This document shows positions 5,226 to 26,786 of a DNA stretch of 64,000 bases, piece after piece. Position numbers and translations under genes: made by a program. Numbering within the stretch: position 1 is the first letter of the stretch; the number at the start of each line of letters is the position of its first letter. Source of the DNA: Mariprofundaceae bacterium. Its GTDB lineage: Bacteria; Pseudomonadota; Zetaproteobacteria; Mariprofundales; Mariprofundaceae. The DNA lies in contig JAUZQO010000022.1 of assembly GCA_030950925.1 (NCBI GenBank), positions 1,851 through 65,850 on the forward strand, written 5' to 3'. Below the pieces are notes generated by a model. It ran no database searches. It was given only the letters and a program-made list of their open reading frames with translations, and was not told where the DNA came from.

Positions 5226-6413
5226 ATGGATATTCAACAACAACTGACCTTATTATCGCGTGGTACATTAGAAATTCTGCCGAAGGATTCATTGGAGGCG
5301 AAGTTACGCCTTGCGAAAAAAGAAAATCGCCCTTTACGTGTGAAAGCTGGTTTTGACCCGACGGCACCTGACTTGCATTTGGGTCACACAGTCTTATTAG
5401 AAAAATTACACCAATTTCAACAATGTGGGCATCAAGTAGTGTTCTTAATTGGTGATTTCACAGGTATGATTGGTGACCCAACGGGCAAAAATGAAACTCG
5501 CCCGCCACTCACCCAAGCTGATGTGCTTGCCAATGCTGAGACCTATAAACAGCAAGTATTTAAAATATTAGACCCTGAAAAAACAGAAATACGTTTTAAC
5601 TCTGAATGGTTTGGCAAAATGAGTGCGGCAGATATGATTGCTTTGGCAGGTAAAGCGACAGTAGCACGTATGCTGGAGCGTGATGATTTTGAAAAACGTT
5701 ATAAAGGTGGGCAATCCATTGCCATTCATGAGTTTTTGTATCCATTGGTGCAAGGTTATGATTCAGTCGTATTGGAAGCTGATATTGAGCTGGGTGGCAA
5801 CGATCAAAAGTTTAACCTATTGATGGGGCGGCAGCTACAAGAGTCTCATCAAAAAACACCGCAAATGATTATGACGATGCCGTTGTTGGAAGGTTTGGAT
5901 GGTGTCAATAAAATGTCCAAATCATTGAATAACTATATTGCCATTGAAGATACACCGAGCAATCAATTTGGTAAACTGATGTCGGCATCGGATGATTTGA
6001 TGATGCGTTATTATGAGTTATTAACGGATATAGATTTGGACAGTATTCGAGTCCTTCATCCGATGGAAGCCAAAAAACAGTTGGCAGCATTGATTGTAGC
6101 TCGTTTTCATGGTGAAGAAGCAGGGAAAGCTGCGCGTGAAGGCTTTGAAAAACAGTTTGCCAAAAAAGAAGTGCCCGATGATATACCTGAAGCATCCTTG
6201 CCCGCTGAAGATGGACGTTTATGGCTGGTGAAGGCTTTGAGTGAAGCAGGTTTAACGAAATCCAATGGTGAAGGTATGCGTTTAATCAAACAAGGGGCGG
6301 TGTCTGTGGATGGTGAAAAAGTCAGTGATAAAGACTTTTCATTGCCTGTGGGCGGTGCATATTTGGTCAAGTGTGGCAAACGTCGTTTTCTTCAGTTGAG
6401 TGTGACGGCATGA
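5226..6413 (+). CDS. tyrS: Tyrosine--tRNA ligase (type 2)
   Basis: HIGH motif as DLHLGHTV, a KMSKS motif, and a C-terminal S4-like domain ([17 protein letters not shown]). The start is chosen at MDIQQQL. Confidence 0.9.
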
Positions 6414-6787
6414 CACTTCCTTATCAATTTGAAATCACTGTTGCACCTGAGTATTTGGAAGAACAATCCGATGCAGAGGCAACGCAGTTTATTTTCGCCT
6501 ACCACATAAAAATTCGCAATATTGGTCGTAAATCAGCCAAATTATTGCGCCGTCATTGGGTGATTACAGATGCTGATAATAAGGTTGAAGAGATTCATGG
6601 TGATGGGGTTGTCGGTGAGCAGCCCCTCATTTCTCCCAGTGGCGAACATGAATACAGTAGTTTTTGTGTTCTGGATACACCACTTGGTTGTATGCATGGC
6701 AGTTATCATATGCTGGGGGAAGATGGTCATGAATTTATAGCCAATATTCCTATTTTTACTTTGGCAAAGAAAGGGATTCTACACTAA
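6410..6787 (+). CDS. apaG: ApaG (DUF525) protein
   Basis: [68 protein letters not shown] is the characteristic ApaG pattern. ATG 6410 overlaps the tyrS stop (ATGA). Confidence 0.85.
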
Positions 6788-6943
6788 TTTTAGTGCCGAA
6801 AGAACTTCACAGCCTATGACACCCATCATGTGTTCATTTTGTTTGATTCCCGATTAAAAGACCACAGGATGACGGGATAGGGGCTATTGATACTTAAATG
6901 ACTACAGTTACACTTTTGCTTAAAATTTTTGAGAGGTTGAAGC

Positions 6944-8794
6944 ATGCCAGTATACCGTTCTAGAACCACCACCGCAGGTCGCAATATGGCAGGCGCTCGC
7001 TCGCTTTGGCGTGCCACAGGCATGACCGATGATGATTTTGAAAAGCCCATCATTGCCGTGGTCAATTCATTCACGCAATTTGTGCCAGGACATGTTCATT
7101 TGAAAGATTTGGGGCAAATGGTGGCACGAGAAATTGAAGCTGCTGGTGGTGTTGCCAAAGAGTTTAACACGATAGCTGTCGATGATGGTATTGCCATGGG
7201 GCATGGCGGTATGCTGTATTCATTGCCAAGCCGTGAAATTATTGCCGATTCGGTCGAATATATGGTCAATGCGCATTGTGCCGATGCGATGGTGTGTATT
7301 TCCAACTGCGATAAAATTACACCAGGTATGTTGATGGCTGCCCTGCGTTTGAATATTCCTGCTGTATTTGTATCGGGTGGGCCGATGGAAGCGGGTAAAG
7401 TGACCATCAAGAACCGTGAACAAATGCTTGATTTGGTCGATGCGATGGTGATGGCGGCTGATGACAACGAAACGGATGAAGATGTGGCAGCGGTTGAACG
7501 TTCAGCCTGCCCAACGTGTGGTTCTTGCTCGGGTATGTTTACTGCCAACTCCATGAACTGTTTAACCGAAGCCTTGGGCTTTTCCCTACCTGGTAATGGT
7601 TCATTGCTTGCCACACATGCTGATCGCAAAGCGTTGTTTTTAGAAGCTGGACGTTTGATTGTAGAAATTACCAAACGCTATTATGAACAGGATGATGCCT
7701 CTGTGTTACCGTGTTCCATTGCCACCTTTGAAGCCTTTGAAAATGCTATGGCATTGGATATTGCCATGGGTGGCTCAACCAACACCGTCTTGCATTTGCT
7801 CGCCTGTGCGCAAGAAGCGGAAGTGGATTTCAGCATGAACGATATGGATCGCTTGAGCCGAAAAGTTCCGAACCTATGCAAGGTTGCTCCCGCAGTGCAG
7901 CACTATCACATGGAAGATGTGCATCGGGCTGGTGGGGTCATCAGTATTTTAGCGGAGCTGGATCGAGGGGGTTTGATTCACCGTGATACGCACACGGTTC
8001 ATTCAGCAAGCTTGGGTGATGCTTTGGATGCCAATGATATTGTGAATGAAGCGAATACAATACCACGTGAGATGTTCCGCGCAGCACCAGGTGGCATTCC
8101 GACACAAGTCGCATTTTCTCAATCAGAACGTTGGAAAACATTGGATACGGATCGTCAAGAGGGTTGTATTCGCAGTGTTGAACATGCCTATTCAAAAGAA
8201 GGTGGCTTGGCGGTGTTGTTTGGCAATATTGCCGAGCGCGGTTGTATTGTGAAGACTGCAGGTGTGGATGAATCCATTTGGAAGTTTACAGGCACAGCGC
8301 GGGTATTTGTATCCCAAGATGATGCGGTGAATGCTATTTTGAACGATAAAATAAAAGCAGGTGATATGGTGATTATCACCTATGAAGGTCCGAAAGGTGG
8401 ACCTGGGATGCAGGAAATGCTTTACCCGACCTCTTATCTCAAATCCAAAGGTATGGGCAAGGTGTGTGCTTTGCTCACTGATGGTCGGTTTTCTGGTGGC
8501 ACGTCAGGTTTATCCATTGGACACGCTTCACCCGAAGCTGCTGAAGGTGGTGCGATTGGTTTGATTGAAGATGGCGATACCATCAATATTGATATTCCGA
8601 ATCGCAGTATCAATCTTATGATTTCTGATGAAGAGCTAACAAACCGTCGTGTGGCTATGGAAGCCAAGGGCAAGGATGCTTGGATGCCCGTTGGGCGTGA
8701 GCGTGTTGTTTCCAAAGCATTAAAAGCCTATGCCGCTTTGACAACGTCGGCAGATAAAGGCGCTGTGCGTGATTTAGAGCAATTGAATAGATGA
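6944..8794 (+). CDS. ilvD: Dihydroxy-acid dehydratase
   Basis: 616 aa. The N-terminus is [26 protein letters not shown], with [12 protein letters not shown] and [18 protein letters not shown] Fe-S ligand regions. Confidence 0.95.
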
Positions 8795-8826
8795 TGGATA
8801 TGTGTGATAAAGCAAAGGAATAAAAC

Positions 8827-9498
8827 ATGAAAATTTGGGAGCTATTGGCGCAAACAACGGTGGAGGGCGCAGCGCATGACATGCGTTTGTATCAACGGGG
8901 TGATGAATTCTCGATTAAAACAGGTTATTCGGAGTTGATGAACAGTCGCATGCACAGTTCTGAAGATTTATTGGCTGAATTGGGCTGTCGCGCTTTGAAG
9001 CAAGGTCAAAAATCACGGGTATTGATTGGTGGTTTGGGTATGGGTTACACGCTTGCTGCGGCTTTGAAACATACCCCTGATGATGCTGAAATTATTGTGG
9101 CGGAGCTTGTGCCTGCGGTAGTTGAATGGAATCGTAGTTATTTATCACATCTTGCCGACGCTCCTTTGAAAAATGAGCGGGTGAGTGTGTATGAAGGCGA
9201 TGTTGGGGTGTTGATGCTCCATGATAAAATGGGCTTTGATGCCATTTTATTGGATGTCGATAACGGACCAGACGGATTGACGCGTCAAGAAAATGGTGCG
9301 TTGTATAGTGTTAAAGGTTTGAAGTCAGCTAAGGCTGCTTTACACACTCAAGGTGTGTTTGGGGTTTGGTCGGCATTTCCTGAACCAAGGTTTACCAAAA
9401 AAATGAAGCAAGCAGGTTTTCAAACCGAAGAAGTAGCATGCCGCGCGCATGGTCAACGTGGTAGTAAACATATGGTTTGGTTGGGTGTTCGACCGTAA
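8827..9498 (+). CDS. Spermidine synthase-like class I methyltransferase-fold protein
   Basis: 223 aa. Contains LMNSRMHSSEDLLAELGC and a SAM-fold glycine motif RVLIGGLGMGYT...DAILLDVDNGP, as in short spermine/spermidine-synthase-like proteins. Confidence 0.6.
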   Translation: MKIWELLAQTTVEGAAHDMRLYQRGDEFSIKTGYSELMNSRMHSSEDLLAELGCRALKQGQKSRVLIGGLGMGYTLAAALKHTPDDAEIIVAELVPAVVEWNRSYLSHLADAPLKNERVSVYEGDVGVLMLHDKMGFDAILLDVDNGPDGLTRQENGALYSVKGLKSAKAALHTQGVFGVWSAFPEPRFTKKMKQAGFQTEEVACRAHGQRGSKHMVWLGVRP

Positions 9499-9519
9499 GT
9501 AAAAAAGGAAATGTAAACC

Positions 9520-9918
9520 ATGAAAAATCAACTAACAGCAGCGATTGTCTTTTATTTCAAGGGTGAAAAATTTGATTTTTCTGCCCATATTGATGTGGAT
9601 AAATGGCTACGAGAACACTTGGGGGATATGGAATATGTCTATGATGTGATTGCCCTTGCCAATGGTTTGGATCGCTATCGTCATGAATATGATGTGATGG
9701 TGATGGAGCCTGTGTGTTTTTTACAAGGCACAGGTTTAGCCGCTGACCATATCATGGATGGTCAATTTGATTTGGAGGGCTTTCAAGTCACCTACGGAGA
9801 AGAAAAAGCCTTGTCTGCGCTAAGTCTAATCGCCAAGCAGTACTTGGATATTACCAATCTAGAAGAGCATCCAAGCATCCAAGCAGCGTTGCTGGCTGCT
9901 TATCATGCGAAGAGATAG
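9520..9918 (+). CDS. Hypothetical protein (132 aa)
   Basis: Uninterrupted ORF with an AAGGA SD-like element upstream and codon usage like its neighbours. No motif recognised. Confidence 0.45.
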   Translation: MKNQLTAAIVFYFKGEKFDFSAHIDVDKWLREHLGDMEYVYDVIALANGLDRYRHEYDVMVMEPVCFLQGTGLAADHIMDGQFDLEGFQVTYGEEKALSALSLIAKQYLDITNLEEHPSIQAALLAAYHAKR

Positions 9919-10042
9919 AGGTTTTCTCTCTTATTTTTTAATGATGGGTTAGAAAATTGGTATTGGATTTGCTTACTCCATGCATATTGGCAGTGATTCA
10001 CCGTTTATCGGTGCTATCTCATTCATTAAAAGGGGAGTTCGC

Positions 10043-12286
10043 ATGAAAATATTGAATCTCAAACAACTTAGCATCATGCAACGCATGCTGGTGTTGGGCA
10101 GTATGGCAATGTTGGGGCTATTGGCATCAGGCATTGCGCATGAAGTCATGGTGAATAAGTTACAAGTGGTGTCCAAGCAAGAGTTCAAAGCAGGAAAGAT
10201 GATGGAAATGTTGGATGGTTTATCTGCCACTATCCCTGAAGAATACCATGCTTTGCAAGCTTTTTTATATCTGTCGGATAAAAAAGAAGAAGTGAATTAT
10301 CAAAGTTTATCCAAAAACAATGATGAAGAGATTGAGCATTTAGCCAATGCTCTTCCAACACAAGATTTGAAAGATACATCCGACAAATTATCGGAAGCCA
10401 TGCGACACTTTGATTCAGAAGCACGTTTGATGCTTGAAATGCGTGAGAAGTTGGGTTTGACTGAAAAGTTGGGCTTGCGTGGCGCATTGCGTGATTCCGT
10501 TCACCGTGCAGAACATCGCATTAAGTCATTAAAACAGGATGATTTGATGGTATCCATGTTGATGCTTCGTCGACATGAAAAAGATTTTATGTTGCGGCAC
10601 AACCCCAAATATTTGATGCAACAAAAAAATGAAATGGAACATTTTTCTCAGCTCTTGGAAAATAGCAATATCAATGTGCGTGATAAAAAAGAGATTGCTA
10701 AGGCGATGGATACATACTTGGAAGATTTCCTTGCTTATGCCGAACTGGATTTGGAGTTGTTAAAACGTAATCAAGAAGTGAAACGTATCTATCAAAATGA
10801 GCTTCTAGCAGGTCTTGAAAGTATTGATCATATGTTTGGTCAGGAAATTGATGATGTGGATGCCGAATACAATGAAATTATGGAAACCATGCCTGTTTAC
10901 TATTGGTCGCTGATGTTGGTGGTGTTGGTGATTACCCTGATCTTGTTGTTGATAGTGGCGCGTAGTGTTGCCAGACCGATTCGTGAAGTATCCGAAGCCA
11001 TGGATGCCTTGGAACGCGGTATTGTGGTTCCTGTGTCCTCTGAGCAAGGTGGCGAGATTGGTGAAATGGTGGAATCCTTGGGTATTTTTCAAGAGCAATC
11101 CAAAGAGGCAGAGCAATTGAAACGTGTTGTAGAAGCCAGTCCACAAGCTACGATGATTGCCAATCGTCATACCTTGGTGGTGAACTATATGAACCCTGCG
11201 GCATTGCAGTTATTTCGTGGTATTCAATCGGAATTACCTTGTACAGCCGATCAAATTGTTGGGCAGTGTATTGATATTTTTCATAAAAACCCTGCACATC
11301 AACGAAACTTTTTGGCCAGTAAAGGCAATTTACCTGCGACCGCAGGCTTCACGATTGCAAAGCGTAATATTAAGTTTTCTTCCTTTGCCATTGATAACCA
11401 GCAGGGGGATTGGGAATCTATCATGGTCTCATGGAGTGATGTGACTGAAAGTGATGAATTGGCACGTAATTTTGAAGAAAATATTGGTGCGATGGTGGAA
11501 GATCTGATTGCTGCATCCACACAAATGGAAGCTGCCAGTGAGGGTATGAGCAGTATGGCAGAAGAGGCGACGCATCAAGCAGGCAGTGTCTCCACCAGTG
11601 CCATGGAAGCCAATGAAAATGTGATGACTGTAGCATCGGCCGCCGAGGAATTGACGGCATCGATTGCTGAAATTACACGCCAAGTGCAAGAAGCGGTGGC
11701 AATATCGGATCAAGCAGTGGAAGAGGCTGTAAGTACCAATGAAAATGTGTCCAAGCTTTCCAGTGTATCGCAAGAAATTGGTGAAGTGGTTCGGGTGATT
11801 ACCGATATTGCTGAACAAACCAATCTTTTGGCACTCAATGCGAGCATTGAAGCGGCACGAGCAGGTGATGCTGGGCGTGGATTTGCGGTGGTGGCTGGTG
11901 AAGTTAAAGAGCTTGCTAATCAAACTGCGCAAGCAACGGAACGGATTGCAGGTCAAATTTCTGCAATTCAAACAGAAAGTGATGGGGCTGCAAAAGCCAT
12001 TGGGCATATTGCAGATACCATCAAACGTATGAATGAAATCAACCGAGCGATTTCATCGGCAACCGAAGAACAAAATGATGCAACCCGTGAAATTGCACAG
12101 AGTGTGCAATATGCATCGGATGCAACCCATCGGGTGACGGAAGCGATTGAGCAAGTCACCAGTGCATCAGCTGAAACGGGTAATGCAGCAGGTAATGTAT
12201 TGGCGGTATCAGGCAGCATACGTTCTCAGGGTGAAAGCTTGCATACGCAGGTTCTGGATTTTTTAGCCTCCTTGCGGCGCCATTAA
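10043..12286 (+). CDS. Methyl-accepting chemotaxis protein with TM, HAMP and a cytoplasmic PAS-like insert
   Basis: ATG 10043 follows GGGGAG. A second TM ([21 protein letters not shown]) is followed by a HAMP-like [20 protein letters not shown], a PAS-like segment ([19 protein letters not shown]...) and the signalling hairpin [40 protein letters not shown]. Confidence 0.9.
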
Positions 12287-12525
12287 AGCACTTAGCCGTT
12301 CCTTCAAGGCTTGAGCCGTCTCCAAATCAAAGCGTTCAGTTGAACCATATTCACGACGTTAAGACAAAGGAGGCGGCGCAAACTCAGGAATTGAGTGGCG
12401 TCGCACAGGTTTCAAAGCATGAATTAGCACCCTCATCCATCCGTGTTCCAAGTAAGACAACTGTTTTATCACGGGCTTCTTATGCTATAAAAATCTGCCG
12501 TTCTTTTGCTTCGAAGGTGATACGT

Positions 12526-15500
12526 ATGGCCGATAAATCGATCCTGACGGGCAAAGTAATGCCCACCAAAGGTGAACATGATACGGCGACTTTGGATGGC
12601 TCAGATGATATTGATAAATCCAGTTGGAAAAGCTATTTATCAGGGGGGCATTCACGCCGTGAGTGGTTGCTGTTGGGTGAACGTGTGTTTTCACATCCCC
12701 GTTATGCCATCCTTATCGTGGCGGCATTGGGTTTGTGCATGTTTGAACGATATTGGTTTGTGTTGGCACCCTTGGCGTTGTTCTTTGCGGGGGAGTGGAT
12801 GTTGCGTTTTTGGTTGCAAAAGGAAAATCGTTTCCGTAATCGCACTGAGTTTATTTTTCTTATATTGGATGGTTTGGCAACACTGAGTTTGTTTTCGGCT
12901 TTGTTTATGCCAGCGGATATATTGGATCAGGCGGTTTACTTGCGTATCGCACGGCTATTTCGTGGCATGTATATGCTGCGCATGTTACGGATCTTTGCTT
13001 TCCTCACCTTTGATACCTTTATTTATTCATTGCCGTTTGCTTTGTTGGTCATCGGTATGGCGTGCTTGGCGATTGCTGTGCCATCCATTTCGCTTTACAT
13101 GGGTGTGTTACTAATATTAGAGGCTGCATGCCGTGCCTATTCAATATGGAAGGTGTTACCCAAGGGTGGACGTAGAAACACTGAATTTGGCTTTGTGTTG
13201 CTTGATGGTGTATCGAGTGTGGTTTTGTTGGGTTTGGTGCCTGAATTTTCACCTTATTGGGTTGCGATTCGTGCCATTCGTTTTTTGGTGATGCTGAACC
13301 CTTTGGGTAATATTTCTTTGGCTGCGAAACGTGTGGCAGCGATGCAAGAAGTACGCAGCGAAACCAGCATGTTGGCAGGCATGATGGTGGCCATGATGAT
13401 GATGGGCGGTTTATCGGTGGTTTATCTTTATCCGCAAATGGACATCAATGACGATGGCGTGACCAATGCACAAGATTATGTGCCAGTGCAAGTGGTATTG
13501 TATGTGTTTCGTTTGATGGTGGATCCAGGGGCTGCCACCACCGAAGCTTTTTCACCTTGGTTGCTTGGTTTAACGGTGTTGTTGGTGCTTTCGGGTGTGT
13601 TTTTCTTCGCTTTGGTGGTCAGTTTGGGTTCGAATGTGATGCATTACATGTTACGAGAATTAAGCAATAGCCCTCTTTCTGCGCGTGAATACTTGGTGAT
13701 TGTAGGCTGGAATGAACAATCCTATGCAGTGTTAAAACGCTTGGATGCGATGTTTTCACGCATGCGGCAACGCTTTGCTGCGGTATGGATTTTTCATGAT
13801 AAGGGGGTTTCTGGTGCATCCACGGTGGGTAGTTGGTTGAGTGTGCGTGAGGTGGATCCAGGAAGTCGGAACTTAGCCGAACATTTTAAGCTTTCAGGCG
13901 TGCAACACATGATTATTTTTCGTCGAAAACAAGATATACACTTGGTAGATACCCATCATTTGGTGCGCAATTTTGGTGTGCCTGTGGTGTTGGTGTCGGA
14001 AGCAATCATGCCCAATAAATTGCATCATATGTATGCAGATTCGATGGGCATGAAAATTTTGGATTCATCATCGATCACTGCGCGCATGCTTTATCAAATG
14101 CATCATTGCGCTTGGATGCCTGAGTTGGGTATTCGTTTGTTGGATGCTGTGGCAGGGGAAACGGGTCTTTATACCCTTGCTTGGGCGTTTGATGTCGAAG
14201 TCGGGCAAGGCAAACCATGGTTGCTGATGGGGGATAAAAGACAAGCCTTGGGTGTGTGGCTGACGTATTGTTTTAGCCAAGGTGTCAATCTTTTGGCTGG
14301 TCGGCGGGAAGATGGTTCGTTTGTGTTGTTCAGTGATTTGGCACATGGAAAAGTGGGTGGTCATTTTGTTGATGTAGTGGGCTTGGGGGGTGATACTTTA
14401 TTGTGGTCGGGTATTTTGGAAACAAATTTACAGCAAGAGAATGTGTCACAAAAAGAACACGCACTCAAACAATTCGTATGGCCTGAAACATGGGATTTAT
14501 CCATGTTGTTTATGGGCTGGCATGCAGGGTTGCCTGCGATGATTGAAGAAATGGCATTGAAACATCATAAACTCACCTTGCATCTATTTAGTACCCGTGA
14601 TGCCGATGAACTTGCCGAACAATTACGCCGTTTAAAAGGTGCCTGTGCGCGTGCAAAAGAAGCGTGTAGCTGTGAGTTAAAAGTGTCGGTGCATCCATGG
14701 GATGGTTTGGATTCAGAAGGCTGGGTGGGATTATTGCGCGGCTGTAAGGTGATGATGTTTTATCCCGAAGAACGTGAGGGTGATAGTGAGGATTCGTTGT
14801 TGGAACTGTGGTTCCATGAAGTGGCGCGTTTATTAAGCGAACGCAAACAAAATGTGAAATGGTGGACACCGCCCAAACTGATGGTGTTGCCAAGAAGTGG
14901 GGGCAATGTTGCCAGTTTTGAAATGGCTGGCATGGATTATCCCCTATTGGAAGTAGATGTGGGTTCTCCCGATGCTTTTCATGATACATTTATGGCAAGG
15001 CAGTTGCTTACTCAAACAAGACAACACCTTTATCCCGAAGCATCCACACAAGATGAAAAGAGTTATGCCTTTGTGGATGCAATGTTGGGCGATGCGGTGT
15101 TGGTGGAAGATGTACTCACCACACGTTTGGTGGAAGTCTCGGCGGGCATGGATTGGGTGCCGATTTATCAAGAATCTTTGGCGCGTGGCTGGATGTTGAT
15201 GGCGTATGTGATGCCTGAGTTGGATGCAGATGGACAGACCATGTTTGGTCTTTTAGATCGAAGCTTTCCGCAGCCACAGGATGAAACGGGCAGTCGTATG
15301 CATTTGTTGGCGGGTTCACCTGTGCTGGAGATGGATGTGCCTATACATACCATGAATTTATTGTTTTGTCGGCGTGGAGTGTTGGATGTGTCATTGGATG
15401 ACAACAAGGATGTCAGTGAAGATATTGTAGTTGCAGTAAAAACAGAACCAAAGATGGAAGCTGTGACAAAAATAGCAACCGTGGTTGAAGAAGTGGTAGA

Positions 15501-15930
15501 TGAACAGTCTGATAGAGAAGTTGTGCGTGAAGAAAACGAGTTGGTAGTGCCAGAAGAGGTGAAAGAAGGGGAGATTATGAATAATTCAGTATGGCCACAA
15601 ACGGCAGATAAACGTTTGTTACAAGTTTTGAAGAAACAAGTGCAAGGCTCCTTGGAACTGCTATCTGAAAGTAGTGAGGATGGTTTGATTAAGCTGACTG
15701 AAATTTTGGACATGGGTGTTTCTGATGCGGTGGAAGAAGCGATTATGGCAGCGCTGACCGATTTACAAAATATTGATCGTGTCTCGCAACGTCTCACCAA
15801 TGTTCAAACTTGTTTGGATGACTGGTCGATGCATGTTGGTGATGCCAGTCAAGCGGCATTATGGGAAGAAGAAGTGGCGAAGCGTTATGTCATGGAAGAA
15901 GAACGCATGGTATTGAAGGGGGAATTATGA
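12526..15930 (+). CDS. Large multidomain membrane protein of unknown function. Its parts are two voltage-sensor-like 4-TM modules, a pore-like segment, two RCK-like (CASTOR/POLLUX-type GW) domains, an acidic linker and a helical C-terminal domain with a D-x3-Q motif
   Basis: ATG 12526 is preceded by GAAGGTGA. Internal duplication: RNRTEFIFLILDGLATLSL...LRIARLFRGMYMLRMLRIF and RRNTEFGFVLLDGVSSVVLL...VAIRAIRFLVML (Arg every third residue). Other elements are VLYVFRLMVDPGAATTEAF between two TM helices, YLVIVGWNEQSYAVLKRL, LSMLFMGWHAGLPAMIEEM and the C-terminal IMAALTDLQNIDRVSQRL. The stop overlaps the cheY ATG. That it is a real CDS is near-certain; the domain interpretation is inference. Confidence 0.6.
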   Translation: MADKSILTGKVMPTKGEHDTATLDGSDDIDKSSWKSYLSGGHSRREWLLLGERVFSHPRYAILIVAALGLCMFERYWFVLAPLALFFAGEWMLRFWLQKENRFRNRTEFIFLILDGLATLSLFSALFMPADILDQAVYLRIARLFRGMYMLRMLRIFAFLTFDTFIYSLPFALLVIGMACLAIAVPSISLYMGVLLILEAACRAYSIWKVLPKGGRRNTEFGFVLLDGVSSVVLLGLVPEFSPYWVAIRAIRFLVMLNPLGNISLAAKRVAAMQEVRSETSMLAGMMVAMMMMGGLSVVYLYPQMDINDDGVTNAQDYVPVQVVLYVFRLMVDPGAATTEAFSPWLLGLTVLLVLSGVFFFALVVSLGSNVMHYMLRELSNSPLSAREYLVIVGWNEQSYAVLKRLDAMFSRMRQRFAAVWIFHDKGVSGASTVGSWLSVREVDPGSRNLAEHFKLSGVQHMIIFRRKQDIHLVDTHHLVRNFGVPVVLVSEAIMPNKLHHMYADSMGMKILDSSSITARMLYQMHHCAWMPELGIRLLDAVAGETGLYTLAWAFDVEVGQGKPWLLMGDKRQALGVWLTYCFSQGVNLLAGRREDGSFVLFSDLAHGKVGGHFVDVVGLGGDTLLWSGILETNLQQENVSQKEHALKQFVWPETWDLSMLFMGWHAGLPAMIEEMALKHHKLTLHLFSTRDADELAEQLRRLKGACARAKEACSCELKVSVHPWDGLDSEGWVGLLRGCKVMMFYPEEREGDSEDSLLELWFHEVARLLSERKQNVKWWTPPKLMVLPRSGGNVASFEMAGMDYPLLEVDVGSPDAFHDTFMARQLLTQTRQHLYPEASTQDEKSYAFVDAMLGDAVLVEDVLTTRLVEVSAGMDWVPIYQESLARGWMLMAYVMPELDADGQTMFGLLDRSFPQPQDETGSRMHLLAGSPVLEMDVPIHTMNLLFCRRGVLDVSLDDNKDVSEDIVVAVKTEPKMEAVTKIATVVEEVVDEQSDREVVREENELVVPEEVKEGEIMNNSVWPQTADKRLLQVLKKQVQGSLELLSESSEDGLIKLTEILDMGVSDAVEEAIMAALTDLQNIDRVSQRLTNVQTCLDDWSMHVGDASQAALWEEEVAKRYVMEEERMVLKGEL

Positions 15931-16304
15931 CAGGACCTAGAATTTTGATTGTTGAAGATTCGACCATGGTGCGGATTACTGTGAAGCGTACTTTAAAGAA
16001 AGTTGATTTTAATGTGGATGAAGCCAAAGATGGTCAAATTGGTTTGGATAAAGCGACAGCCTCAGCAGATAACCCTTATGATTTGATACTAACAGATTTG
16101 AATATGCCCAATATGGATGGGCTAACCATGATTCAAAATATCCGAAAAATACCCAGTTATGCTCATACACCGATTGTGATGCTCACCACCGAGTCGGGTG
16201 AAGATAAAAAAAGTGTCGGGCATGAATCAGGGGTTTCAGCATGGCTAGTGAAACCCTTTGAACCTGATGCATTGATTGAAGTTGTTGGCGGGATGTTGTT
16301 TTAG
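15927..16304 (+). CDS. cheY: CheY-like single-domain response regulator
   Basis: ILIVEDSTMVR...DLILTDLNMPNMDG...IVMLTTE...WLVKPF has all receiver signature residues. ATG 15927 overlaps the upstream TGA (ATGA). Confidence 0.9.
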   Translation: MTGPRILIVEDSTMVRITVKRTLKKVDFNVDEAKDGQIGLDKATASADNPYDLILTDLNMPNMDGLTMIQNIRKIPSYAHTPIVMLTTESGEDKKSVGHESGVSAWLVKPFEPDALIEVVGGMLF

Positions 16305-16480
16305 AAAAGGTCATCATGTCTGGGTGTTTTTTATTGGATTCTTGCGAAAAAAGAGTGTCATCCCCGAATGCTTGTACCGGGGGTCTATAGGTAAGAAAGA
16401 TTCCCGATAGAATATTTTTGGGAATGATGGTTGGGCAAATATGGGATAATGAAAAAGACGATAAAATAGGAGCAAGGGCA

Positions 16481-19417
16481 ATGGATGAAGAGCTACTGAG
16501 TGAGTTTTTAACAGAAAGTAATGAGAATTTAGCATCCATTGAACAACAATTGATGGATTTGGAAATGCACCCCAGTAACGTGGACTTGTTGGATGGTATT
16601 TTCCGAGCGGTGCATACTGTTAAAGGCAGTTGTGGCTTTTTGGGCTTGGTGGGCTTGCAAAAAACAGCCCATGCAGGTGAAAACCTATTGGGGAAAATCC
16701 GTGCTACAAAATATTTGGTCAATGATGAAGTGGTGTCTTTACTACTTGAGTGTACCGATGGTATCAAAGCCTTGTTGGAAGGTTTGGAAGCTGAAGGTGC
16801 TGAGCCAGATTTGGATCACAGTGATTTGATTGAACGTTTGCATATCGCAGAACGTATGGTGGAAGATTTTTCAACATCGGCTAAACACAAGGCTTCAGAA
16901 GAGCTTGAGGAAGCAGTGCAAAACCTTGATTGGTTGGGTGAGTTTGATCCGCTGGTGTTGACGACCTTAAAGGGTGCGAAATTGTTCACAGCGCAAGATA
17001 TGATAGATGCTGGTTTTGCCCGTTTGCGAGAGACGGATGGTTTAACCCCTGCGGATGCTTTGAAGATTTTAGGGGTGGCTAAAAAAACATTAAAAGCAGC
17101 ACCCATGGTCGTCAAGCATGTGGCGAAGTCTGAATCAAAAAACAATGTTGAAGATCATCCTAAAAATATAGGGGAAGAGGACTGTAAGCCCCCAAGTAAG
17201 AAGGGAAAATTGGTATCAGCTTCGCCCCAAACTGCTGACAAATCTGCCGCAAAATCTCAAACGCCCAAAGCGACAAATACACCGGTGAAAGCCGTGCCTA
17301 AAACTGGTAGCAAGCAACAACGTTCGAAAAGTGCCGGCAGTATTCGTGTTGATATTGAACTGTTGGATAGTTTGATGAACCAAGTGGGTGAATTGGTGCT
17401 GACGCGGAATCGTTTGATGCAGATGATGATGAGCTCTGGCAATATGGCATATGTGCGTGTGAGTCGGGATGTGGATCATATCACCGAACAATTGCAGGCA
17501 CAGCTATTGCGCACCCGTATGCAACCCATTCAAAGTGTCTGGAGCAGTATTCCGCGTATTGTTCGAGATATGGGCAAGCAATTGGATAAGAAAATTACTG
17601 TCATTATGGAAGGCGAAGAAACAGAGCTAGATCGCACTATTCTCAATGCGCTGAAAGATCCTTTGACGCATATTATTCGAAACAGTTGTGACCACGGCAT
17701 TGAAATGCCTGATGAAAGGCGGAATGCTTCAAAACCAGTTGAAGGCACATTGAAACTATCGGCTTCGCAAGAATCAGGATTTATTGTCATTTTGATTGAA
17801 GATGATGGGGCTGGTATTGATGCCTCGCGTGTGAAAAGTAAAGCGGTGTCGATGGGGGTTCTGACAGAAGATCAAGCTGCGATTATCAGTGATAAAGCTG
17901 TCTTGCAGTTGATTTTTCATGCGGGTTTATCCACAGCGGAACAAGTGAGTAATTTATCTGGACGTGGTGTTGGCATGGATGTGGTGCGCACAGAGATTGA
18001 AAAAGTGGGTGGTTCAGTGGATATCAGCAGTGAACGCGGCGTGGGTACAACGTTACGCATTCGTATTCCACTGACCTTGGCGATTATTTCAGCCATGATT
18101 ATAGGCTGTGATGGTCATCGTTTTGCCATTCCTCAAATGAGTGTACGCGAACTATTGAATGCACCTGCTGATTCCAGTGAATGGCGTTTGATTGGTGGGC
18201 AACCATTTTATCGTTTGCGGGGTAAACTCTTGCCCGTGATGCGTTTGAAGGAAGTGTTGGAATTTAAACAGAATGTGGACAATGAAGGCTCGATTGTGGT
18301 GGTGGATATTGGTGATCGCACCTATGGCGTGTTGGTGGATGAAATTTTTGGTGCTGAAGAAATTGTGGTCAAACCTTTGGGTATCCATTTCCAACAAACA
18401 CGTTTTTATGGTGGGTGTAGTATTTTGGGTGATGGTGTGGTGATTCCTATTTTTGACTGCAATGAATTGGCATCTTTGATGAAATTATCACAAGAAGCTG
18501 AGGCTATTCAACATTTGGAAGAGGAAAAAGAAGTCTCTATGCACGAGCTACAGCACACCTTGGTATTTGCTGAGGGTGGGCAACGTTTTGCGATTCCCAT
18601 GGCATTGATCGAACGCTTGGAATGCTTTCCTGAAAAGAAAATTGAACATTCTGGAAGTTCTGAAGTACTTCAATACCGTGATGATGTGATTGCTGTACTG
18701 CGTTGGAGTGCTTTGATTGGTGGGCATCGAGATATTTCCCCCGATGATAGTGTCTATGGTCTTATTTTATCTGATGGTTATAAATGCTTGTGTCTGCAAG
18801 TGGAAGAAGTCGTGGATATTTTAGAAATACCTTTGGATATAAAAATGACATCAGACAATCCTTTGTTTTTAGGCACGTCGGTGATTGAAGATCTTGCCAC
18901 TGAAGTGGTGGATGTATTTGAAGTGGTAAAACAAGTGGATCCCAATTGGTTTTCACGCAATAAGAGTGTGGCATCCACTGAAGAGTTTGCAGTACCGACT
19001 ATTTTATTCGTTGAAGATGCTACTTTTTTTAGAAACTTGGTTATACCTGTCTTGGATACATTGGGTTATGAGACTTGGGTGGCGAAAGATGGTTTAGAAG
19101 CTTGCGCGATTTTGGAAGATAAAATCCCCGACTTGATTCTCACCGATTTAGAAATGCCGAATATGGATGGTTATGGCTTGTTGGATTGGGTGAAAGATCG
19201 TCCAGAGTTGTCGGCTGTGCCTGTGGTGGCGTTAACGGCAACACCCATTGATGAAATACCTGTTGAATCCCAGAAAAAGTTTCGTGATGTGATGATTAAA
19301 TTTGATCGGCAAACATTGACCGAAGGTTTGAAGCTTATCATGGATGATATACAAAATAAGAAGCCATTCAGTGTGGAAGGTGAATTGATTTCTAGCACTG
19401 TGACACAAGGAGATTGA
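16481..19417 (+). CDS. cheA: Hybrid chemotaxis histidine kinase CheA (Hpt, basic linker, dimerisation/HATPase, two CheW-like domains, C-terminal receiver)
   Basis: Hpt AVHTVKGSCGFLG, N box NSCDHGIE, G1 EDDGAGID and G2 SGRGVGMD. Two CheW-like modules (HRFAIPQMSVREL... and QRFAIPMALIERL...) are followed by ILFVEDATFFRN...DLILTDLEMPNMDG. ATG 16481 follows AGGAG. Confidence 0.9.
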   Translation: MDEELLSEFLTESNENLASIEQQLMDLEMHPSNVDLLDGIFRAVHTVKGSCGFLGLVGLQKTAHAGENLLGKIRATKYLVNDEVVSLLLECTDGIKALLEGLEAEGAEPDLDHSDLIERLHIAERMVEDFSTSAKHKASEELEEAVQNLDWLGEFDPLVLTTLKGAKLFTAQDMIDAGFARLRETDGLTPADALKILGVAKKTLKAAPMVVKHVAKSESKNNVEDHPKNIGEEDCKPPSKKGKLVSASPQTADKSAAKSQTPKATNTPVKAVPKTGSKQQRSKSAGSIRVDIELLDSLMNQVGELVLTRNRLMQMMMSSGNMAYVRVSRDVDHITEQLQAQLLRTRMQPIQSVWSSIPRIVRDMGKQLDKKITVIMEGEETELDRTILNALKDPLTHIIRNSCDHGIEMPDERRNASKPVEGTLKLSASQESGFIVILIEDDGAGIDASRVKSKAVSMGVLTEDQAAIISDKAVLQLIFHAGLSTAEQVSNLSGRGVGMDVVRTEIEKVGGSVDISSERGVGTTLRIRIPLTLAIISAMIIGCDGHRFAIPQMSVRELLNAPADSSEWRLIGGQPFYRLRGKLLPVMRLKEVLEFKQNVDNEGSIVVVDIGDRTYGVLVDEIFGAEEIVVKPLGIHFQQTRFYGGCSILGDGVVIPIFDCNELASLMKLSQEAEAIQHLEEEKEVSMHELQHTLVFAEGGQRFAIPMALIERLECFPEKKIEHSGSSEVLQYRDDVIAVLRWSALIGGHRDISPDDSVYGLILSDGYKCLCLQVEEVVDILEIPLDIKMTSDNPLFLGTSVIEDLATEVVDVFEVVKQVDPNWFSRNKSVASTEEFAVPTILFVEDATFFRNLVIPVLDTLGYETWVAKDGLEACAILEDKIPDLILTDLEMPNMDGYGLLDWVKDRPELSAVPVVALTATPIDEIPVESQKKFRDVMIKFDRQTLTEGLKLIMDDIQNKKPFSVEGELISSTVTQGD

Positions 19418-19418
19418 T

Positions 19419-19928
19419 ATGAATGCTTTGGTTCATGTGAGCAATAAACTTGCGCGTTCAGATTTGGAATTGTTGACCTGCCGTGTGGGAGATCAATGGA
19501 TAGGTTTACATGTGAAGCAAGTCCGTGAGGTGGTGACTGGGCATAGGAGAACGGTGATGCCATTGGCTCCCAGTGCCGTGATGGGCTTGATTAACTTGCG
19601 AGGTCGGGTACTGACTGAATTGGACGTGCGTAAAGTTGTGGGCTTGCCTGAACGTGAAGCTGGTGCCTCGTTTCATGTGGCCATTATTGAAGGTAGTTCA
19701 GGTGAAGATTTTGGCTTGGCTGTGGATGATGTGGGTGAAGTGATGTTGATGGATCGAGATTACTATGAACCGACACCGAGTTCGCTGGCATCTATTTGGC
19801 GGCAGGTGAGTGAAGGGGTGTTAAAGCAAGATGATCGCGTGTTGGTGTTGATGAATGTGGATCGTTTTATTGCTTTGACGATTCCTAGTTTGGAGGCGCA
19901 AGTACCTGATTCCGCCGTGGTACATTAA
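19419..19928 (+). CDS. cheW: CheW coupling protein
   Basis: 169 aa. ELLTCRVGDQWIGLHVKQVREVV...PLAPSAVMGLINLRGRVLTELDV is the typical CheW core. It starts 1 nt after the cheA stop. Confidence 0.9.
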   Translation: MNALVHVSNKLARSDLELLTCRVGDQWIGLHVKQVREVVTGHRRTVMPLAPSAVMGLINLRGRVLTELDVRKVVGLPEREAGASFHVAIIEGSSGEDFGLAVDDVGEVMLMDRDYYEPTPSSLASIWRQVSEGVLKQDDRVLVLMNVDRFIALTIPSLEAQVPDSAVVH

Positions 19929-19956
19929 TGTTTTCGATATATCATAGGTCAGGCTT

Positions 19957-21045
19957 ATGAATCACCTACGAGGAAAAAAAATTCGTCTATTAATTGTCGA
20001 TGATTCAGTGGTCTTTCGAACATTTTTTCGTGCTTGTGTGGCACAATTAAAGCATGTTGAAGTCGTGGGTATCGCCAAAGATGGGCGGGATGCGCTGAAT
20101 AAAATCAAACAACTGCAACCTGATGTGGTGACCATGGATATGGAAATGCCACATTTTCATGGCATTGAAGTGATTGAATGTTTACAACATGAAGCACCTG
20201 ATATCTGTGTGCTTGTGATTAGCAGTGAGTCAGAAACAGATGCCGAAAAAACGCTGAAAGCTTTGCAAGTCGGTGCGTTTGATTTTGTTTTGAAGCCCAA
20301 AGCATCCGAGCGTGATCCCACGGCTGTTTTATTAAAAATGTTGAAAGAAACCTTGCCACGTGCACGCAGTGTGAGTCGCGTCAGAGGTTGTGATAAAGTT
20401 GATACCTTTTCGCGCGTTTCTGCGCAGTCGATGGTGCAACGAAAATCCAAACGTATGAGTATGGCAAAAAAAGCAGATTTGGTTGCAATGGGTTCCAGTA
20501 CAGGTGGACCAGAAGCCTTGCATAAAGTATTGAGTATGTTGCCAGCTAATTTCTCTTTGCCGATTACGGTGACGCAGCATATGCCGAAGTTGTTTTTACA
20601 GTCTTTGGCGGATCGCTTGGATCGAGAAACCAAGTTACAAGCGAAGTTGGCAGAAGATGGTATGGTGTTGGAAGGTGGTTGTATTTATGTGGCACCAGGT
20701 GATGTGCATATGGAAATTGAACGCATGGGTGCAAAATTATGTGTGAAACTGGTGGATGGTGAGAAGGTGCATCATTGTAAACCGGCCGTGGATGTCACCT
20801 TTTATTCATTGGTGAAACTATTGCCAAGAACACGTTGTGTGGCAGTGGTGTTGACAGGCATGGGAGCAGATGGCGCTGCGGGAGCCAAAGCCATGCGAGA
20901 TAAGCAGGCTTATGTGATTGCCCAAGATGAACAAAGTAGTGTGGTATGGGGTATGCCAGGTGAAACGGTGAAATGCGGTGCAGCACATGAGGTGCTACCG
21001 CTCAATGAGATTGCAATGGGCATTGTACAAGCGAGTGGAGGCTAG
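19957..21045 (+). CDS. cheB: Chemotaxis response regulator protein-glutamate methylesterase
   Basis: N-terminal receiver (LLIVDDSVVFR...DVVTMDMEMPHFHG) and C-terminal esterase with GSSTGGPEAL, plus the H and D regions (HMPKLF, GMGADGA). Confidence 0.9.
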   Translation: MNHLRGKKIRLLIVDDSVVFRTFFRACVAQLKHVEVVGIAKDGRDALNKIKQLQPDVVTMDMEMPHFHGIEVIECLQHEAPDICVLVISSESETDAEKTLKALQVGAFDFVLKPKASERDPTAVLLKMLKETLPRARSVSRVRGCDKVDTFSRVSAQSMVQRKSKRMSMAKKADLVAMGSSTGGPEALHKVLSMLPANFSLPITVTQHMPKLFLQSLADRLDRETKLQAKLAEDGMVLEGGCIYVAPGDVHMEIERMGAKLCVKLVDGEKVHHCKPAVDVTFYSLVKLLPRTRCVAVVLTGMGADGAAGAKAMRDKQAYVIAQDEQSSVVWGMPGETVKCGAAHEVLPLNEIAMGIVQASGG

Positions 21046-21048
21046 GGT

Positions 21049-21882
21049 ATGACAATACGTTCGGATTTATTTACTTATTTACAAGATTTTTTGTTGCGGC
21101 GCAGTGGTTTGATGTTGGCAGATGATAAGGCTTACTTGATACGATCACGAGTGCAGGTATTGCTGCGCAAGTTTGATATTGCAGATATTAACACCTTGGT
21201 GATGCGGATTAAACGTCAAGAAACAGGTGATATTGCAAAAGCCCTGATTGATGAAATGACGACCAATGAAACCTTGTTTTTCCGTGATAAGTATCCTTTT
21301 GAAGCATTGAAAAAGATTATTTTCCCTGCTTTGAATGATACGGGAGGGATGCATTCGCCTGTAAAAATATGGTCGGCGGCATCATCGCGTGGGCAAGAAC
21401 CTTACTCCATTGCCATGACGGCGGCTGAAGCATTACCCAATGCAACACAACGGGTGAAAATTTTGGCAACAGATTTATCCGAGCAAGCTGTGAACTATGG
21501 TCAATCAGGCATTTATTCTCAAATTGAAGTCAAGCGTGGTTTGGGTGAAAAACAATTGTCACGATTTTTCTCTAAACAAGGAGAAACATGGCAGGTACGC
21601 CAAGATTTAAAGCGTATGATGACTTTTCAAGAGGCAAATTTAGTGGATGATGCTGTGGTGATGCGAGCTCGTAGTTATGGACCATTTGATATTGTTTTTT
21701 GTCGGAATGTTTTGATTTATTTTTCACCTGAAGAACGAAAAAATGTGATTGATCGCTTGGCTAAAACCATGAAGCCACATGCTTATTTATTGACTGGAGC
21801 AGCCGACCGTGTGATAGGTCATGCTTCAAAATGGAAATCTACGATGTTTCAAGGTAAGCGCATTTGGCAGTTACAATCATGA
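21049..21882 (+). CDS. cheR: Chemotaxis protein methyltransferase
   Basis: TNETLFFRD, the SAM-binding IWSAASSRGQEPYSIAM and FDIVFCRNVLIYF. Confidence 0.9.
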   Translation: MTIRSDLFTYLQDFLLRRSGLMLADDKAYLIRSRVQVLLRKFDIADINTLVMRIKRQETGDIAKALIDEMTTNETLFFRDKYPFEALKKIIFPALNDTGGMHSPVKIWSAASSRGQEPYSIAMTAAEALPNATQRVKILATDLSEQAVNYGQSGIYSQIEVKRGLGEKQLSRFFSKQGETWQVRQDLKRMMTFQEANLVDDAVVMRARSYGPFDIVFCRNVLIYFSPEERKNVIDRLAKTMKPHAYLLTGAADRVIGHASKWKSTMFQGKRIWQLQS

Positions 21883-24722: not shown

Positions 24723-24740
24723 AAAAAATATCGAAAGAGA

Positions 24741-26198: not shown

Positions 26199-26303
26199 AA
26201 TAATTCCCCTCAATGTGTAACTGACTTCGAATGATACGAATGGTGATAAATTTAGCTGCATATTGACGATTAAATATTATTTAATCAAGTAAGTGTGTCT
26301 GCT

Positions 26304-26783
26304 TTATTTAAACAAGGCTGCCGTATGAAGTATTCGGTAGTCTTGGTTTTTGATGTTTAAACTCCGATAGAAAAATCCCTGTGAACCTTGTGTTGCCTGT
26401 AGAAAAGTTTCTTCTGGAATGGGTTCAAGTGATAAAATTTCTTCTGTGCGCAAGGCAAGATGCATTTTGGGATGACTAAGGACAATGAAACGCACGCTAT
26501 CATCAAATGTTTGCTTACTGTAGGGTAAAGCCATCACCTGACAAGGGTCAATCACACACACTACCTGACCATGAATATTGCAAACACCCAATAAGTGGTC
26601 TGGCGCCATGGGTACAGGGGTTAAGCGTTGCCGATGAACCACTTCGGATACATCAGAAACGGGAATAAGAATAATTTCTTGACCCACACGAACCTGCATA
26701 ACTTCTACGTAAGTTTGATTAAAATTAGTATGAATCTTTTCTGTGGGTCGAGAACTGGGGGGGATACTGGTTTGAGGAGACAT
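26304..26783 (-). CDS. cheW: CheW-like coupling protein
   Basis: VMQVRVGQEIILIPVSDVSEVV...PMAPDHLLGVCNIHGQVVCVIDP. It starts 3 nt after the upstream ATPase stop. Confidence 0.8.
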   Translation of the reverse strand: MSPQTSIPPSSRPTEKIHTNFNQTYVEVMQVRVGQEIILIPVSDVSEVVHRQRLTPVPMAPDHLLGVCNIHGQVVCVIDPCQVMALPYSKQTFDDSVRFIVLSHPKMHLALRTEEILSLEPIPEETFLQATQGSQGFFYRSLNIKNQDYRILHTAALFK

Positions 26784-26786
26784 GAC

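Follow-up and report, generated by a model that had tools for sequence, protein, structure and literature searches.

A tandem-voltage-sensor channel with a D-x3-Q tail, coupled to cheY in the chemotaxis operons of Zetaproteobacteria

Bacterial chemotaxis is regarded as purely phosphorelay-based, and links between chemotaxis and ion channels are anecdotal. The voltage-gated sodium channel NaVBP of Bacillus pseudofirmus OF4 is reported to be co-localised with chemoreceptors and to affect chemotaxis. CheZ, CheT and the HisKA_3 kinases use a D-x3-Q residue pair to dephosphorylate receiver domains, and the occurrence of this pair in both CheZ and HisKA_3 is a case of convergence. The current work concerns a gene in 64,000 nucleotides of DNA from a Mariprofundaceae bacterium of the Zetaproteobacteria (assembly GCA_030950925.1, contig JAUZQO010000022.1, positions 1,851 to 65,850 of the forward strand), the whole of which is referred to here as the window. 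The gene belongs to a che operon, in which cheY comes immediately after it. It encodes a predicted ion channel with two tandem voltage-sensor domains (VSD1 and VSD2), a pore, two RCK-like domains and a C-terminal module, called the tail, which carries a D-x3-Q motif and probably acts on CheY.

The passages of PMC12654446 on CheT describe a small che-operon protein of Sinorhizobium meliloti with a DXXXQ motif, a CheZ-like predicted helical structure and no sequence similarity to CheZ, which dephosphorylates CheY1~P, the phosphorylated form of CheY1 (PMC12654446, citing Agbekudzi et al. 2024). In the same passages, the cheT gene is placed at the end of alphaproteobacterial operons after cheD, CheT is reported to bind CheR, and CheS, another protein of these systems, is assigned a STAS fold (PMC12654446).

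An earlier note, made from the DNA letters alone, had described a 1134-codon open reading frame (ORF) with a Shine-Dalgarno sequence, located between a gene for a methyl-accepting chemotaxis protein (MCP) and cheY, and joined to cheY by an ATGA overlap of stop and start codons. These features were recovered when the sequence was read again, the flanking genes were identified with Pfam, and every sequence string quoted in that note was found in its place (coordinates are collected in Table 1). The CheY of the window is 36% identical to that of E. coli and retains the equivalents of D57, T87 and K109, as well as those of N59 and E89 around the active site, with W in place of Y106. Judged by these residues, the cognate CheY is a typical CheY. 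No Pfam match to cheZ, cheC or cheX was obtained among the ORFs of the cluster tested, in agreement with the earlier description.

The link with chemotaxis was examined by comparison among genomes. A database search returned 69 homologues, of which the complete ones are full-length (1101-1469 amino acids, aa) and all named ones belong to Zetaproteobacteria (Mariprofundus, Ghiorsea). When one genome per GTDB species was scanned with the tail alignment, 57 tail loci were found, in Zetaproteobacteria without exception; the window tail is 99% identical to that of the metagenome-assembled genome (MAG) NORP31. The loci, annotated by comparison with the window's own Che proteins, fall into three arrangements. 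In the majority (arrangement A), an MCP gene is followed by the channel-tail fusion and by cheY-cheA-cheW-(cheY2)-cheB-cheR. In arrangement B (L043, L056), channel and tail are adjacent separate genes ahead of cheY. Arrangement C lacks the channel and reads MCP-MCP-tail-cheA-cheW-cheY-cheB-cheR (L063 to L068, and L007, which adjoins fliQR-flhBA). Arrangements A and C were both found in one MAG as separate operons (L059, L063).

The synteny is kept in about 50 zetaproteobacterial genomes, which are divergent and differ in their flanking genes, and the identity of the homologues across loci ranges from 44 to 96%. The ATGA junction is present in all 47 zetaproteobacterial loci in which cheY follows the tail, and in five of six loci of arrangement C the stop codon of the tail runs into a candidate start codon of cheA, which is ATG, GTG or TTG. 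The predicted translational coupling of the channel-tail gene to cheY is therefore strict, and the comparative data indicate that the link with chemotaxis is much stronger than could be seen from the window sequence alone. The conserved TTATGA overlap with cheY (window 15925-15930) accounts in part for the Leu that is nearly invariant at the C-terminus of the tail, so that this Leu does not reflect purely protein-level conservation.

The tail itself, modelled alone with AlphaFold, gave a mean predicted local distance difference test score (pLDDT) of 89.7 and a predicted TM-score (pTM) of 0.78, with helices at tail residues 15-48 and 53-88; the suggestion that the last ~110 residues are helical is thus borne out by the model. 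D1084-x3-Q1088 (nt 15775-15789), the motif to which attention had been drawn, is invariant in every tail sequence aligned and lies on the second helix of the hairpin, within a polar stripe formed by Q1081, D1084, R1085, Q1088, R1089 and N1092. W1100, W1113 and the segment R-Y-V-M-E-E-E are also invariant. The C-terminus of the window tail, ...RYVMEEERMVLKGEL, is a conserved segment predicted to lie within the folded domain.

A hidden Markov model of the last 120 residues detected the tail in each complete member of the family, once in most and twice in tandem in about 10 of 63 proteins. Stand-alone tail proteins of 105-141 aa are common. Three tails occur in L003 (4226-9050, a Mariprofundales genome), two in tandem on the channel and one as a stand-alone ORF that overlaps cheY, and an additional stand-alone tail ORF is present in L046. 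Outside the sequences named as Zetaproteobacteria, P0206 is a soluble MCP in which the signalling domain is followed by a divergent tail-like C-terminus (ALQFQDAVNQRLEHV ... YTMRSERELL ... IELF), with the gene order STAS-P0206-cheY-cheA. Every copy found, whether fused, duplicated, stand-alone or, in divergent form, MCP-fused, belongs to a che operon and directly precedes cheY or cheA; none was found outside che operons in these loci. No Pfam or NCBIfam model matches the domain. In a profile search of 1.84 billion cluster representatives, no alphaproteobacterial family stood out among the best 150 of 171 matches, and those covering the tail region were short proteins, P0206 and P0209 only. Taken together, sequence comparison and modelling indicate that the tail is an autonomous chemotaxis-pathway module, separable from the channel.

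Two 'hypothetical' proteins of 575 and 627 aa, whose genes immediately follow cheR-cheB in che clusters of Alphaproteobacteria, may be recorded here (L074 4356-6083, Methylosinus pMSC49c; L075 4179-6062, Novosphingobium RL4). They contain MCP-like segments, the string ALQ(I/V)GDxTRQR(V/L)EHV with D-x3-Q, and a C-terminal YTMxxER, and they have the acidic ends ...DDILFA and ...DDGLF. Their likeness to the tail is nominal only.

The channel part of the protein is predicted to belong to the superfamily of tetrameric cation channels; its overall plan is that of Slo/BK, and its gating ring resembles the one in CASTOR/DMI1. The AlphaFold model, computed with an alignment of 34 homologues, has a pLDDT of 75.8 and a pTM of 0.67. 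In a whole-chain Foldseek search against the PDB, Slo1/BK was the best match (E 3e-14), accompanied by Slo2.2; the ring matched DMI1/CASTOR with target-normalised TM-scores of 0.61-0.65, and also GsuK, TrkA and MthK, and the E values for Slo1, DMI1, CASTOR and GsuK range from 3e-14 to 1e-9. A family profile that included distant relatives matched the ring of CASTOR (E 4e-19), DMI1 (1e-17), BK (8e-9) and MthK (3e-6), as well as the voltage sensor and pore of KCNQ3 at E 1e-4, the last through VSD2 plus pore. The profile search of the PDB was informative only once the distant relatives had joined the alignment; with the close family, it yielded only a weak and non-significant match of VSD1 to the TPTE2 voltage sensor (E 0.58), its best PDB match by sequence.

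Relatives of ~850 aa with a single four-helix module match the Pfam models Ion_trans (over VSD2 and the pore part) and Slo-like_RCK. For the window protein, searched whole and in four pieces, there was no relevant Pfam match at E<=10 (Ion_trans, TrkA_N, Slo-like_RCK, Castor_Poll_mid) and no NCBIfam match at E<=1. Because no curated model matches the protein directly, its membership in the RCK-gated channels rests on fold and transitive profiles. These bear out the structural reading of the earlier note, with its duplicated voltage sensor, its pore and its tandem RCK-like domains of the CASTOR/DMI1 type (Foldseek E 3e-14 to 4e-12, profile E 4e-19). Comparison of RCK1 with RCK2 by hhalign aligned the GW strand only, and neither a GxGxxG motif nor a Ca2+-bowl-like run was seen in the window protein sequence.

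The internal duplication of a four-helix module, seen earlier by eye, was recovered by hhalign between VSD1 and VSD2 with a probability of 90% and an E value of 1.4e-6 over S2-S3. The earlier note had also assigned an S4 with arginine at every third position to both copies (the strings at residues 138-157 and 246-257). In VSD1, R140, R143, R146, R152 and R155 are invariant among the 34 aligned homologues. The S4 of VSD2 retains R249 and R252 only, and E199, R203, E220 and D227 of this module are invariant. In the same alignment F86, F87 and D115 of VSD1 are invariant and E90 is nearly so, and F87-x2-E90 in S2 with D115 in S3 resembles a charge-transfer centre. In Shaker this centre consists of the aromatic F290 and the acidic E293 of S2, together with the acidic D316 of S3. 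VSD2 has L196 in the place of the aromatic residue. By these alignments, a full arginine ladder and charge-transfer-centre-like residues are present in the first module only. To our knowledge, no channel described so far has a single pore preceded by two voltage-sensor modules in tandem.

In the pore region, the model places helices at 274-301, 320-332 and 344-380, which can be assigned to S5, pore helix and S6 and correspond to the two transmembrane helices around a re-entrant segment that had been suspected. The filter loop of the window protein is FRLMVDPGAATTEAF (FRLMVDPGAA), with F328, D333, P334 and G335 invariant, and the pore motif of the family as a whole is F-R-x3-D-P/A-G-N. The K+ filter sequence TVGYG is absent from the pore loop of the window protein; to judge from its residues, this filter is not a K+ filter. 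The acidic linker reported between the ring and the helical tail was confirmed as a disordered stretch in the model. It varies in length and composition among homologues, and the block 951-1000 has a mean identity to the window sequence of 0.19.

Channels of the same kind also occur without a tail. Two-module relatives of 950-990 aa lacking the tail were found in the profile search (best 150 of 171 matches), the named ones again from Zetaproteobacteria; one of them, SPV1_12737 (P0090), belongs to the type strain Mariprofundus ferrooxydans PV-1. A metagenome scan added 35 more loci. In L076, with the order cheB-HEAT-cheR-cheY-cheA-STAS-cheY-g231-channel-REC, the tail-less channel (P0087) is preceded by g231 (6319-7014), a gene for a 231-aa protein whose stop overlaps the channel start. 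This protein contains AMQFQDIMRQRLEHV and YCM..QR and ends in ...NIDLF; what it shares with the tail in the alignment is the Y-x-M segment and the invariant Q-x2-D-x3-Q-R. Similarly, a 328-aa protein with ALQFEDIVSQ and the C-terminus ...GDVELF is encoded between cheB and the channel in L102 (7010-7996). The Q, D, Q and R of the motif are invariant in all alignments, including that of the tail-like set. In L093, L094 and L101, cheY-cheA-cheW lies ~1.1 kb downstream of the channel, followed in L093 and L101, where the contig is long enough, by an MCP gene.

Other tail-less channels stand among flagellar genes. In L098 the channel is flanked by flagellar genes of the rod and hook type, L091, L096 and L104 have such genes in matching positions, and L071 adjoins flgFGAHIJMK. 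In L098 (channel 7968-10829), the co-directional order by Pfam is flgB-flgC-fliF-fliG-fliH-fliI-fliJ-(MgtE_N protein)-channel-fliK-flgD-flgE. Acidic C-termini of the form ...DDDVELF or ...DDIFF were found in all four che-adjacent tail-less channels readable at that end (L076, L093, L094, L101), and acidic ...LF-type ends (...DVELF, ...NIDLF, ...SIELF) also close the D-x3-Q proteins g231, L102 328-aa and P0206; the flagellar-operon paralogues are without such a peptide. A channel, a D-x3-Q protein and cheY thus recur either fused or as separate neighbours, which points to a functional link of the 'Rosetta stone' type. To judge from these gene neighbourhoods, the entire clade of channels is associated with motility, whether or not a tail is present.

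Some further observations were made on these relatives. The acidic C-terminal peptide is also present in L079, P0084 and P0093. L101 encodes a second, Kv-like K+ channel of 318 aa (10887-11843) with the filter TVGYGD and the end ...DEIDLFSDDD, located between the two-sensor channel and cheY-cheA-cheW-MCP, so that this che locus contains two different ion channels. P0066 (L006 5509-8508) is a complete tail-less protein of 999 aa, 45% identical, that lies outside any che operon. It represents a third paralogue class and adjoins three pilT/pilB-like ATPase genes and a gene for a PAS-GGDEF protein, which suggests another motility or surface-behaviour context.

The earlier note had proposed that the protein acts on CheY as a phosphatase, sink or effector, and such a role of the tail is plausible in view of its motif and gene order. 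In the explanation favoured here, to which a rough probability of 45% may be given, the tail docks on CheY~P and dephosphorylates it, and the channel anchors this termination of the signal at the membrane. The invariant stripe Q-x2-D-R-x2-Q-R would present the D-x3-Q pair on one face of the helix. The tail would bind CheY~P made by the CheA of the operon, and D1084 and Q1088 would speed its dephosphorylation, as in CheZ and CheT. The channel, presumably a tetramer with four tails, would be the membrane anchor, and the fusion would localise and concentrate the activity. More speculatively, membrane potential or an RCK ligand could tune the activity of the tail, and the ion flux of the channel could itself feed into motility. 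The result might be an energy- or ion-dependent chemotaxis input for an organism of Fe(II)/O2 gradients.

Several points weigh against this phosphatase explanation. Similarity to CheZ is not detected with any confidence: the tail family aligned with CheZ by hhalign at a probability of 0.2% in three set-ups, the CheZ-sized relatives reached E 0.03-0.04 and 1.3-1.6%, the tail had no Pfam match at E<=10, CheZ was not found in a PDB profile search with the tail, and Foldseek of the monomeric tail model returned generic hairpins only (EsxA, ROP; best E 1.1). For these comparisons, a CheZ alignment reaching from E. coli to Photobacterium, down to 31% identity, was set against progressively broader tail-like alignments in four set-ups and against the single 231-aa protein in one. 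The genomic context is not uniform either. The channel-free operons couple the tail to cheA and not to cheY, so that CheA as the partner is equally compatible. The CheA of the window ends in a receiver domain that may itself serve as a phosphate sink, and CheX occurs near one channel-free locus; a dedicated phosphatase is therefore not obviously required. Finally, the disordered linker of 60-350 residues speaks against a tight allosteric coupling of ring and tail, and its length and variability suggest tethering rather than allostery.

The main rival to the phosphatase explanation reverses the direction of the signal: the tail would be a receptor for CheY~P, which would gate the channel, and the ion flux or potential would act on the motor. 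CheY~P may dock on the tail or, in tail-less forms, on the ...ELF peptides. The tail-less paralogues within the core flagellar operon tie the channel to the motor and make this reading attractive, the strict translational coupling to cheY would suit such a receptor, and the acidic ends of the che-adjacent channels, absent from the flagellar paralogues, resemble the CheY-docking end of CheZ. However, che operons that lack the channel also contain the tail, and a soluble MCP bears a divergent form of it, which shows that the tail has a role independent of the channel. It is also mechanically hard to see how occupancy of the tail could gate a pore across a long disordered linker, and an invariant D-x3-Q with two arginines looks catalytic rather than adhesive. 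This explanation is considered unlikely.

In another explanation, the tail would be a scaffold: by binding to CheA, to CheW or to the receptors of the array, it would bring the channel, or the tail alone, to the chemosensory array and would have no direct effect on CheY~P. A parallel is offered by CheS, a modulator of CheA in Sinorhizobium. The position of the tail gene directly before cheA in six channel-free loci, with overlap of the start in five, fits this view, as do the STAS (CheS-like) genes that accompany the tail-like proteins in L073 and L076. A domain that targets the array would, however, be redundant on the MCP signalling domain of P0206; the tail is all-helical and has no STAS fold; and the invariant polar stripe is typical of an active site. 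A pure scaffold function is thus rather improbable.

The tail might also be a true but extremely divergent and shortened CheZ (PF04344). Three of the five hhalign comparisons cover the motif, and each of them puts D1084 and Q1088 in register with D143 and Q147, the catalytic pair of CheZ, which has the same spacing of i, i+4. The Pfam CheZ model matched P0206 over the motif at a sub-threshold E of 0.05, and g231 and the L102 328-aa protein are of CheZ-like size with an acidic ...LF end. All of these statistics are far below significance, though, and the hairpin is too short by half; moreover, convergence on D-x3-Q is documented, and CheT is described as having no sequence similarity to CheZ in the passages cited above (PMC12654446). 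Descent from CheZ is accordingly held to be very improbable. Membership of the CheZ family, which the resemblance of the motif to the CheZ catalytic helix had brought to mind, is not demonstrated; the likeness is one of motif, fold class and genomic context. As for a further alternative, in which an ordinary homeostatic cation channel with the tail as a structural appendage neighbours the che genes by coincidence, it is effectively refuted by the comparative data, in which position and junction (47 of 47 loci) persist at 44-96% identity and among changing flanks, tails are found only in che operons, and the paralogues lie in flagellar operons.

Two other identities of the tail were considered and rejected. 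A CheS-like protein would have a STAS fold, and the tail is helical. CheC, CheX and FliY are alpha/beta proteins with E-x2-N, and the all-helical tail has no Pfam match to CheC or CheX.

The features of the gene and of its surroundings in the window are listed in Table 1. No other channel paralogue and no additional tail was found elsewhere in the window. A scan for promoters and terminators gave fewer matches than in shuffled sequence and was uninformative. Between a gene for a spermidine-synthase-like methyltransferase and the MCP gene lies a 132-aa ORF (9520-9918, + strand) with no Pfam or NCBIfam match, which is not kept beside the operon in other genomes. Downstream, a second, convergent chemosensory cluster occupies 21954-28988 on the - strand, and this looks like a Che-type system that controls a pilus ATPase.

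Table 1. Coordinates of the channel-tail gene, its predicted domains and the neighbouring chemotaxis genes in the window
Feature	Position	Strand	Basis or remark
Channel-tail ORF	12526..15930	+	1134 aa plus stop; ATG 12526, TGA 15928-15930
Shine-Dalgarno-like GAAGGTGA	12513..12520	+	5 nt before ATG 12526
VSD1, residues ~58-160	12697..13005	+	alignment, AlphaFold
VSD2, residues ~165-257, degenerate duplicate	13018..13296	+	hhalign against VSD1
S4-S5 linker helix, S5, pore helix 320-332, filter loop, S6 344-380	13300..13665	+	AlphaFold
RCK1-like domain, residues ~388-640, begins LVIVGWNEQ	13687..14445	+	Foldseek, family profile
RCK2-like domain, residues ~655-952, begins MLFMGWHAGLP	14488..15381	+	AlphaFold, Foldseek, family profile
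Acidic disordered linker, residues ~953-1020	15382..15585	+	pLDDT <50
Tail module, ~115 aa, predicted helical hairpin plus short C-terminal helices	15586..15927	+	AlphaFold
Invariant stripe Q1081-x2-D1084-R1085-x2-Q1088-R1089-x2-N1092	15766..15801	+	alignments
ATGA stop/start overlap of channel ORF with cheY	15927..15930	+	
MCP (HAMP-PAS-MCPsignal)	9980..12286	+	Pfam; upstream partner kept in relatives
cheY	15927..16304	+	Pfam PF00072, E 1.8e-25
cheA (Hpt-dimerisation-HATPase-CheW-REC), cheW, cheB, cheR	16418..21882	+	Pfam; order kept in related loci
CheA with CheW and receiver domains, second cluster	21954-24722	-	
MCP, second cluster	24741-26261	-	
CheW, second cluster	26304-26783	-	
Type II/IV secretion ATPase, MshEN domain and C-terminal receiver, second cluster	26787-28988	-	

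The channel superfamily was known already, and the chemistry proposed for the tail has precedents. What is new, as far as could be found, is the tandem-sensor topology, the tail domain family and the hard-wiring of a channel into operons for chemotaxis and flagella. Literature searches on channels encoded among che or flagellar genes, and on channels in Mariprofundus chemotaxis, gave no account of this protein, its tail or any such channel. The results suggest that bacterial navigation has the sensing of ions or voltage built directly into it, and there is a substantial chance that the channel-tail protein is a new class of chemotaxis component. A broader proposal is that Zetaproteobacteria possess a dedicated family of tandem-voltage-sensor, RCK-gated motility channels, with one paralogue in the flagellar operon and another in the che operon, the latter physically coupled to CheY by a new D-x3-Q domain, and with potential or flux as a direct input or output of chemotaxis. 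In this full form it is tentative and somewhat doubtful, although, if true, it would give prokaryotes a counterpart to the steering of cilia by channels and would establish a new class of Che component.

If the tail acts on CheY~P, it would be the first channel-tethered response-regulator phosphatase and the third sequence family, after CheZ and CheT, with D-x3-Q on a helical hairpin. If the channel is voltage- or ion-gated, it would offer a molecular route to energy or ion taxis for organisms that have to keep their place in opposing gradients of Fe(II) and O2. Mariprofundus can be cultured and the soluble parts of the protein are small, which makes the key claims directly testable.

Among known systems, CheZ (PF04344; E. 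coli) shares with the tail a helical hairpin with D-x3-Q on one helix and a gene beside cheY. It differs in that the tail hairpin is about half as long and in the surroundings of the motif, which are LQNIDRVSQRL in the tail and AQDFQDLTGQVI in CheZ. The proteins related to the tail close with an acidic ...LF peptide that resembles the C-terminus by which CheZ binds CheY (...DDLLDSLGF). The tail fits the published account of CheT in being small, helical and encoded in a che operon, with DXXXQ and no sequence similarity to CheZ, the comparison being one of description only (PMC12654446). It differs from that account in that CheT is encoded at the operon end after cheD and binds CheR, and no fusion of CheT to a channel is known. 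The rhizobial plasmid che clusters found via cheB were without a cheD-cheT end.

On the channel side, Slo1/BK and Slo2 (PDB 7yo2, 5tj6, 5u76) combine, like the window protein, a voltage sensor, S5-P-S6 and an RCK1-RCK2 ring in one chain, and Slo1/BK, as the best whole-chain match, was aligned over ~945 columns at a sequence identity of 10-12%. In contrast to Slo, which has S0 and one VSD, the window protein has two tandem VSD-like modules. It is of bacterial origin, TVGYG is absent from it, its RCK2 has no acidic run like the Ca2+ bowl, and its C-terminal domain is specific to che. CASTOR/POLLUX/DMI1 of the plant nuclear envelope (rings 6o6j, 6o7c, 7vm8) are the closest solved relatives by sequence profile, and in them, too, both RCK domains begin with h-h-h-h-G-W. 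The family pore motif D-P/A-G-N resembles A-D-(S/A)-G-N-H, which we take to be the CASTOR/DMI1 filter, whereas the window protein itself has DPGAA and not DxGN. These plant channels have a smaller number of transmembrane helices and lack both a che module and an S4 with an arginine ladder.

NaVBP, for its part, has no che fusion or operon link, no RCK ring and no CheY-directed domain. The voltage-sensing phosphatases (Ci-VSP/TPTE) are eukaryotic proteins with neither a pore nor an RCK ring, in which a short linker leads to a lipid phosphatase of the PTEN type. They resemble the channel-tail protein in concept, in which a phosphatase would likewise be tethered to a voltage sensor.

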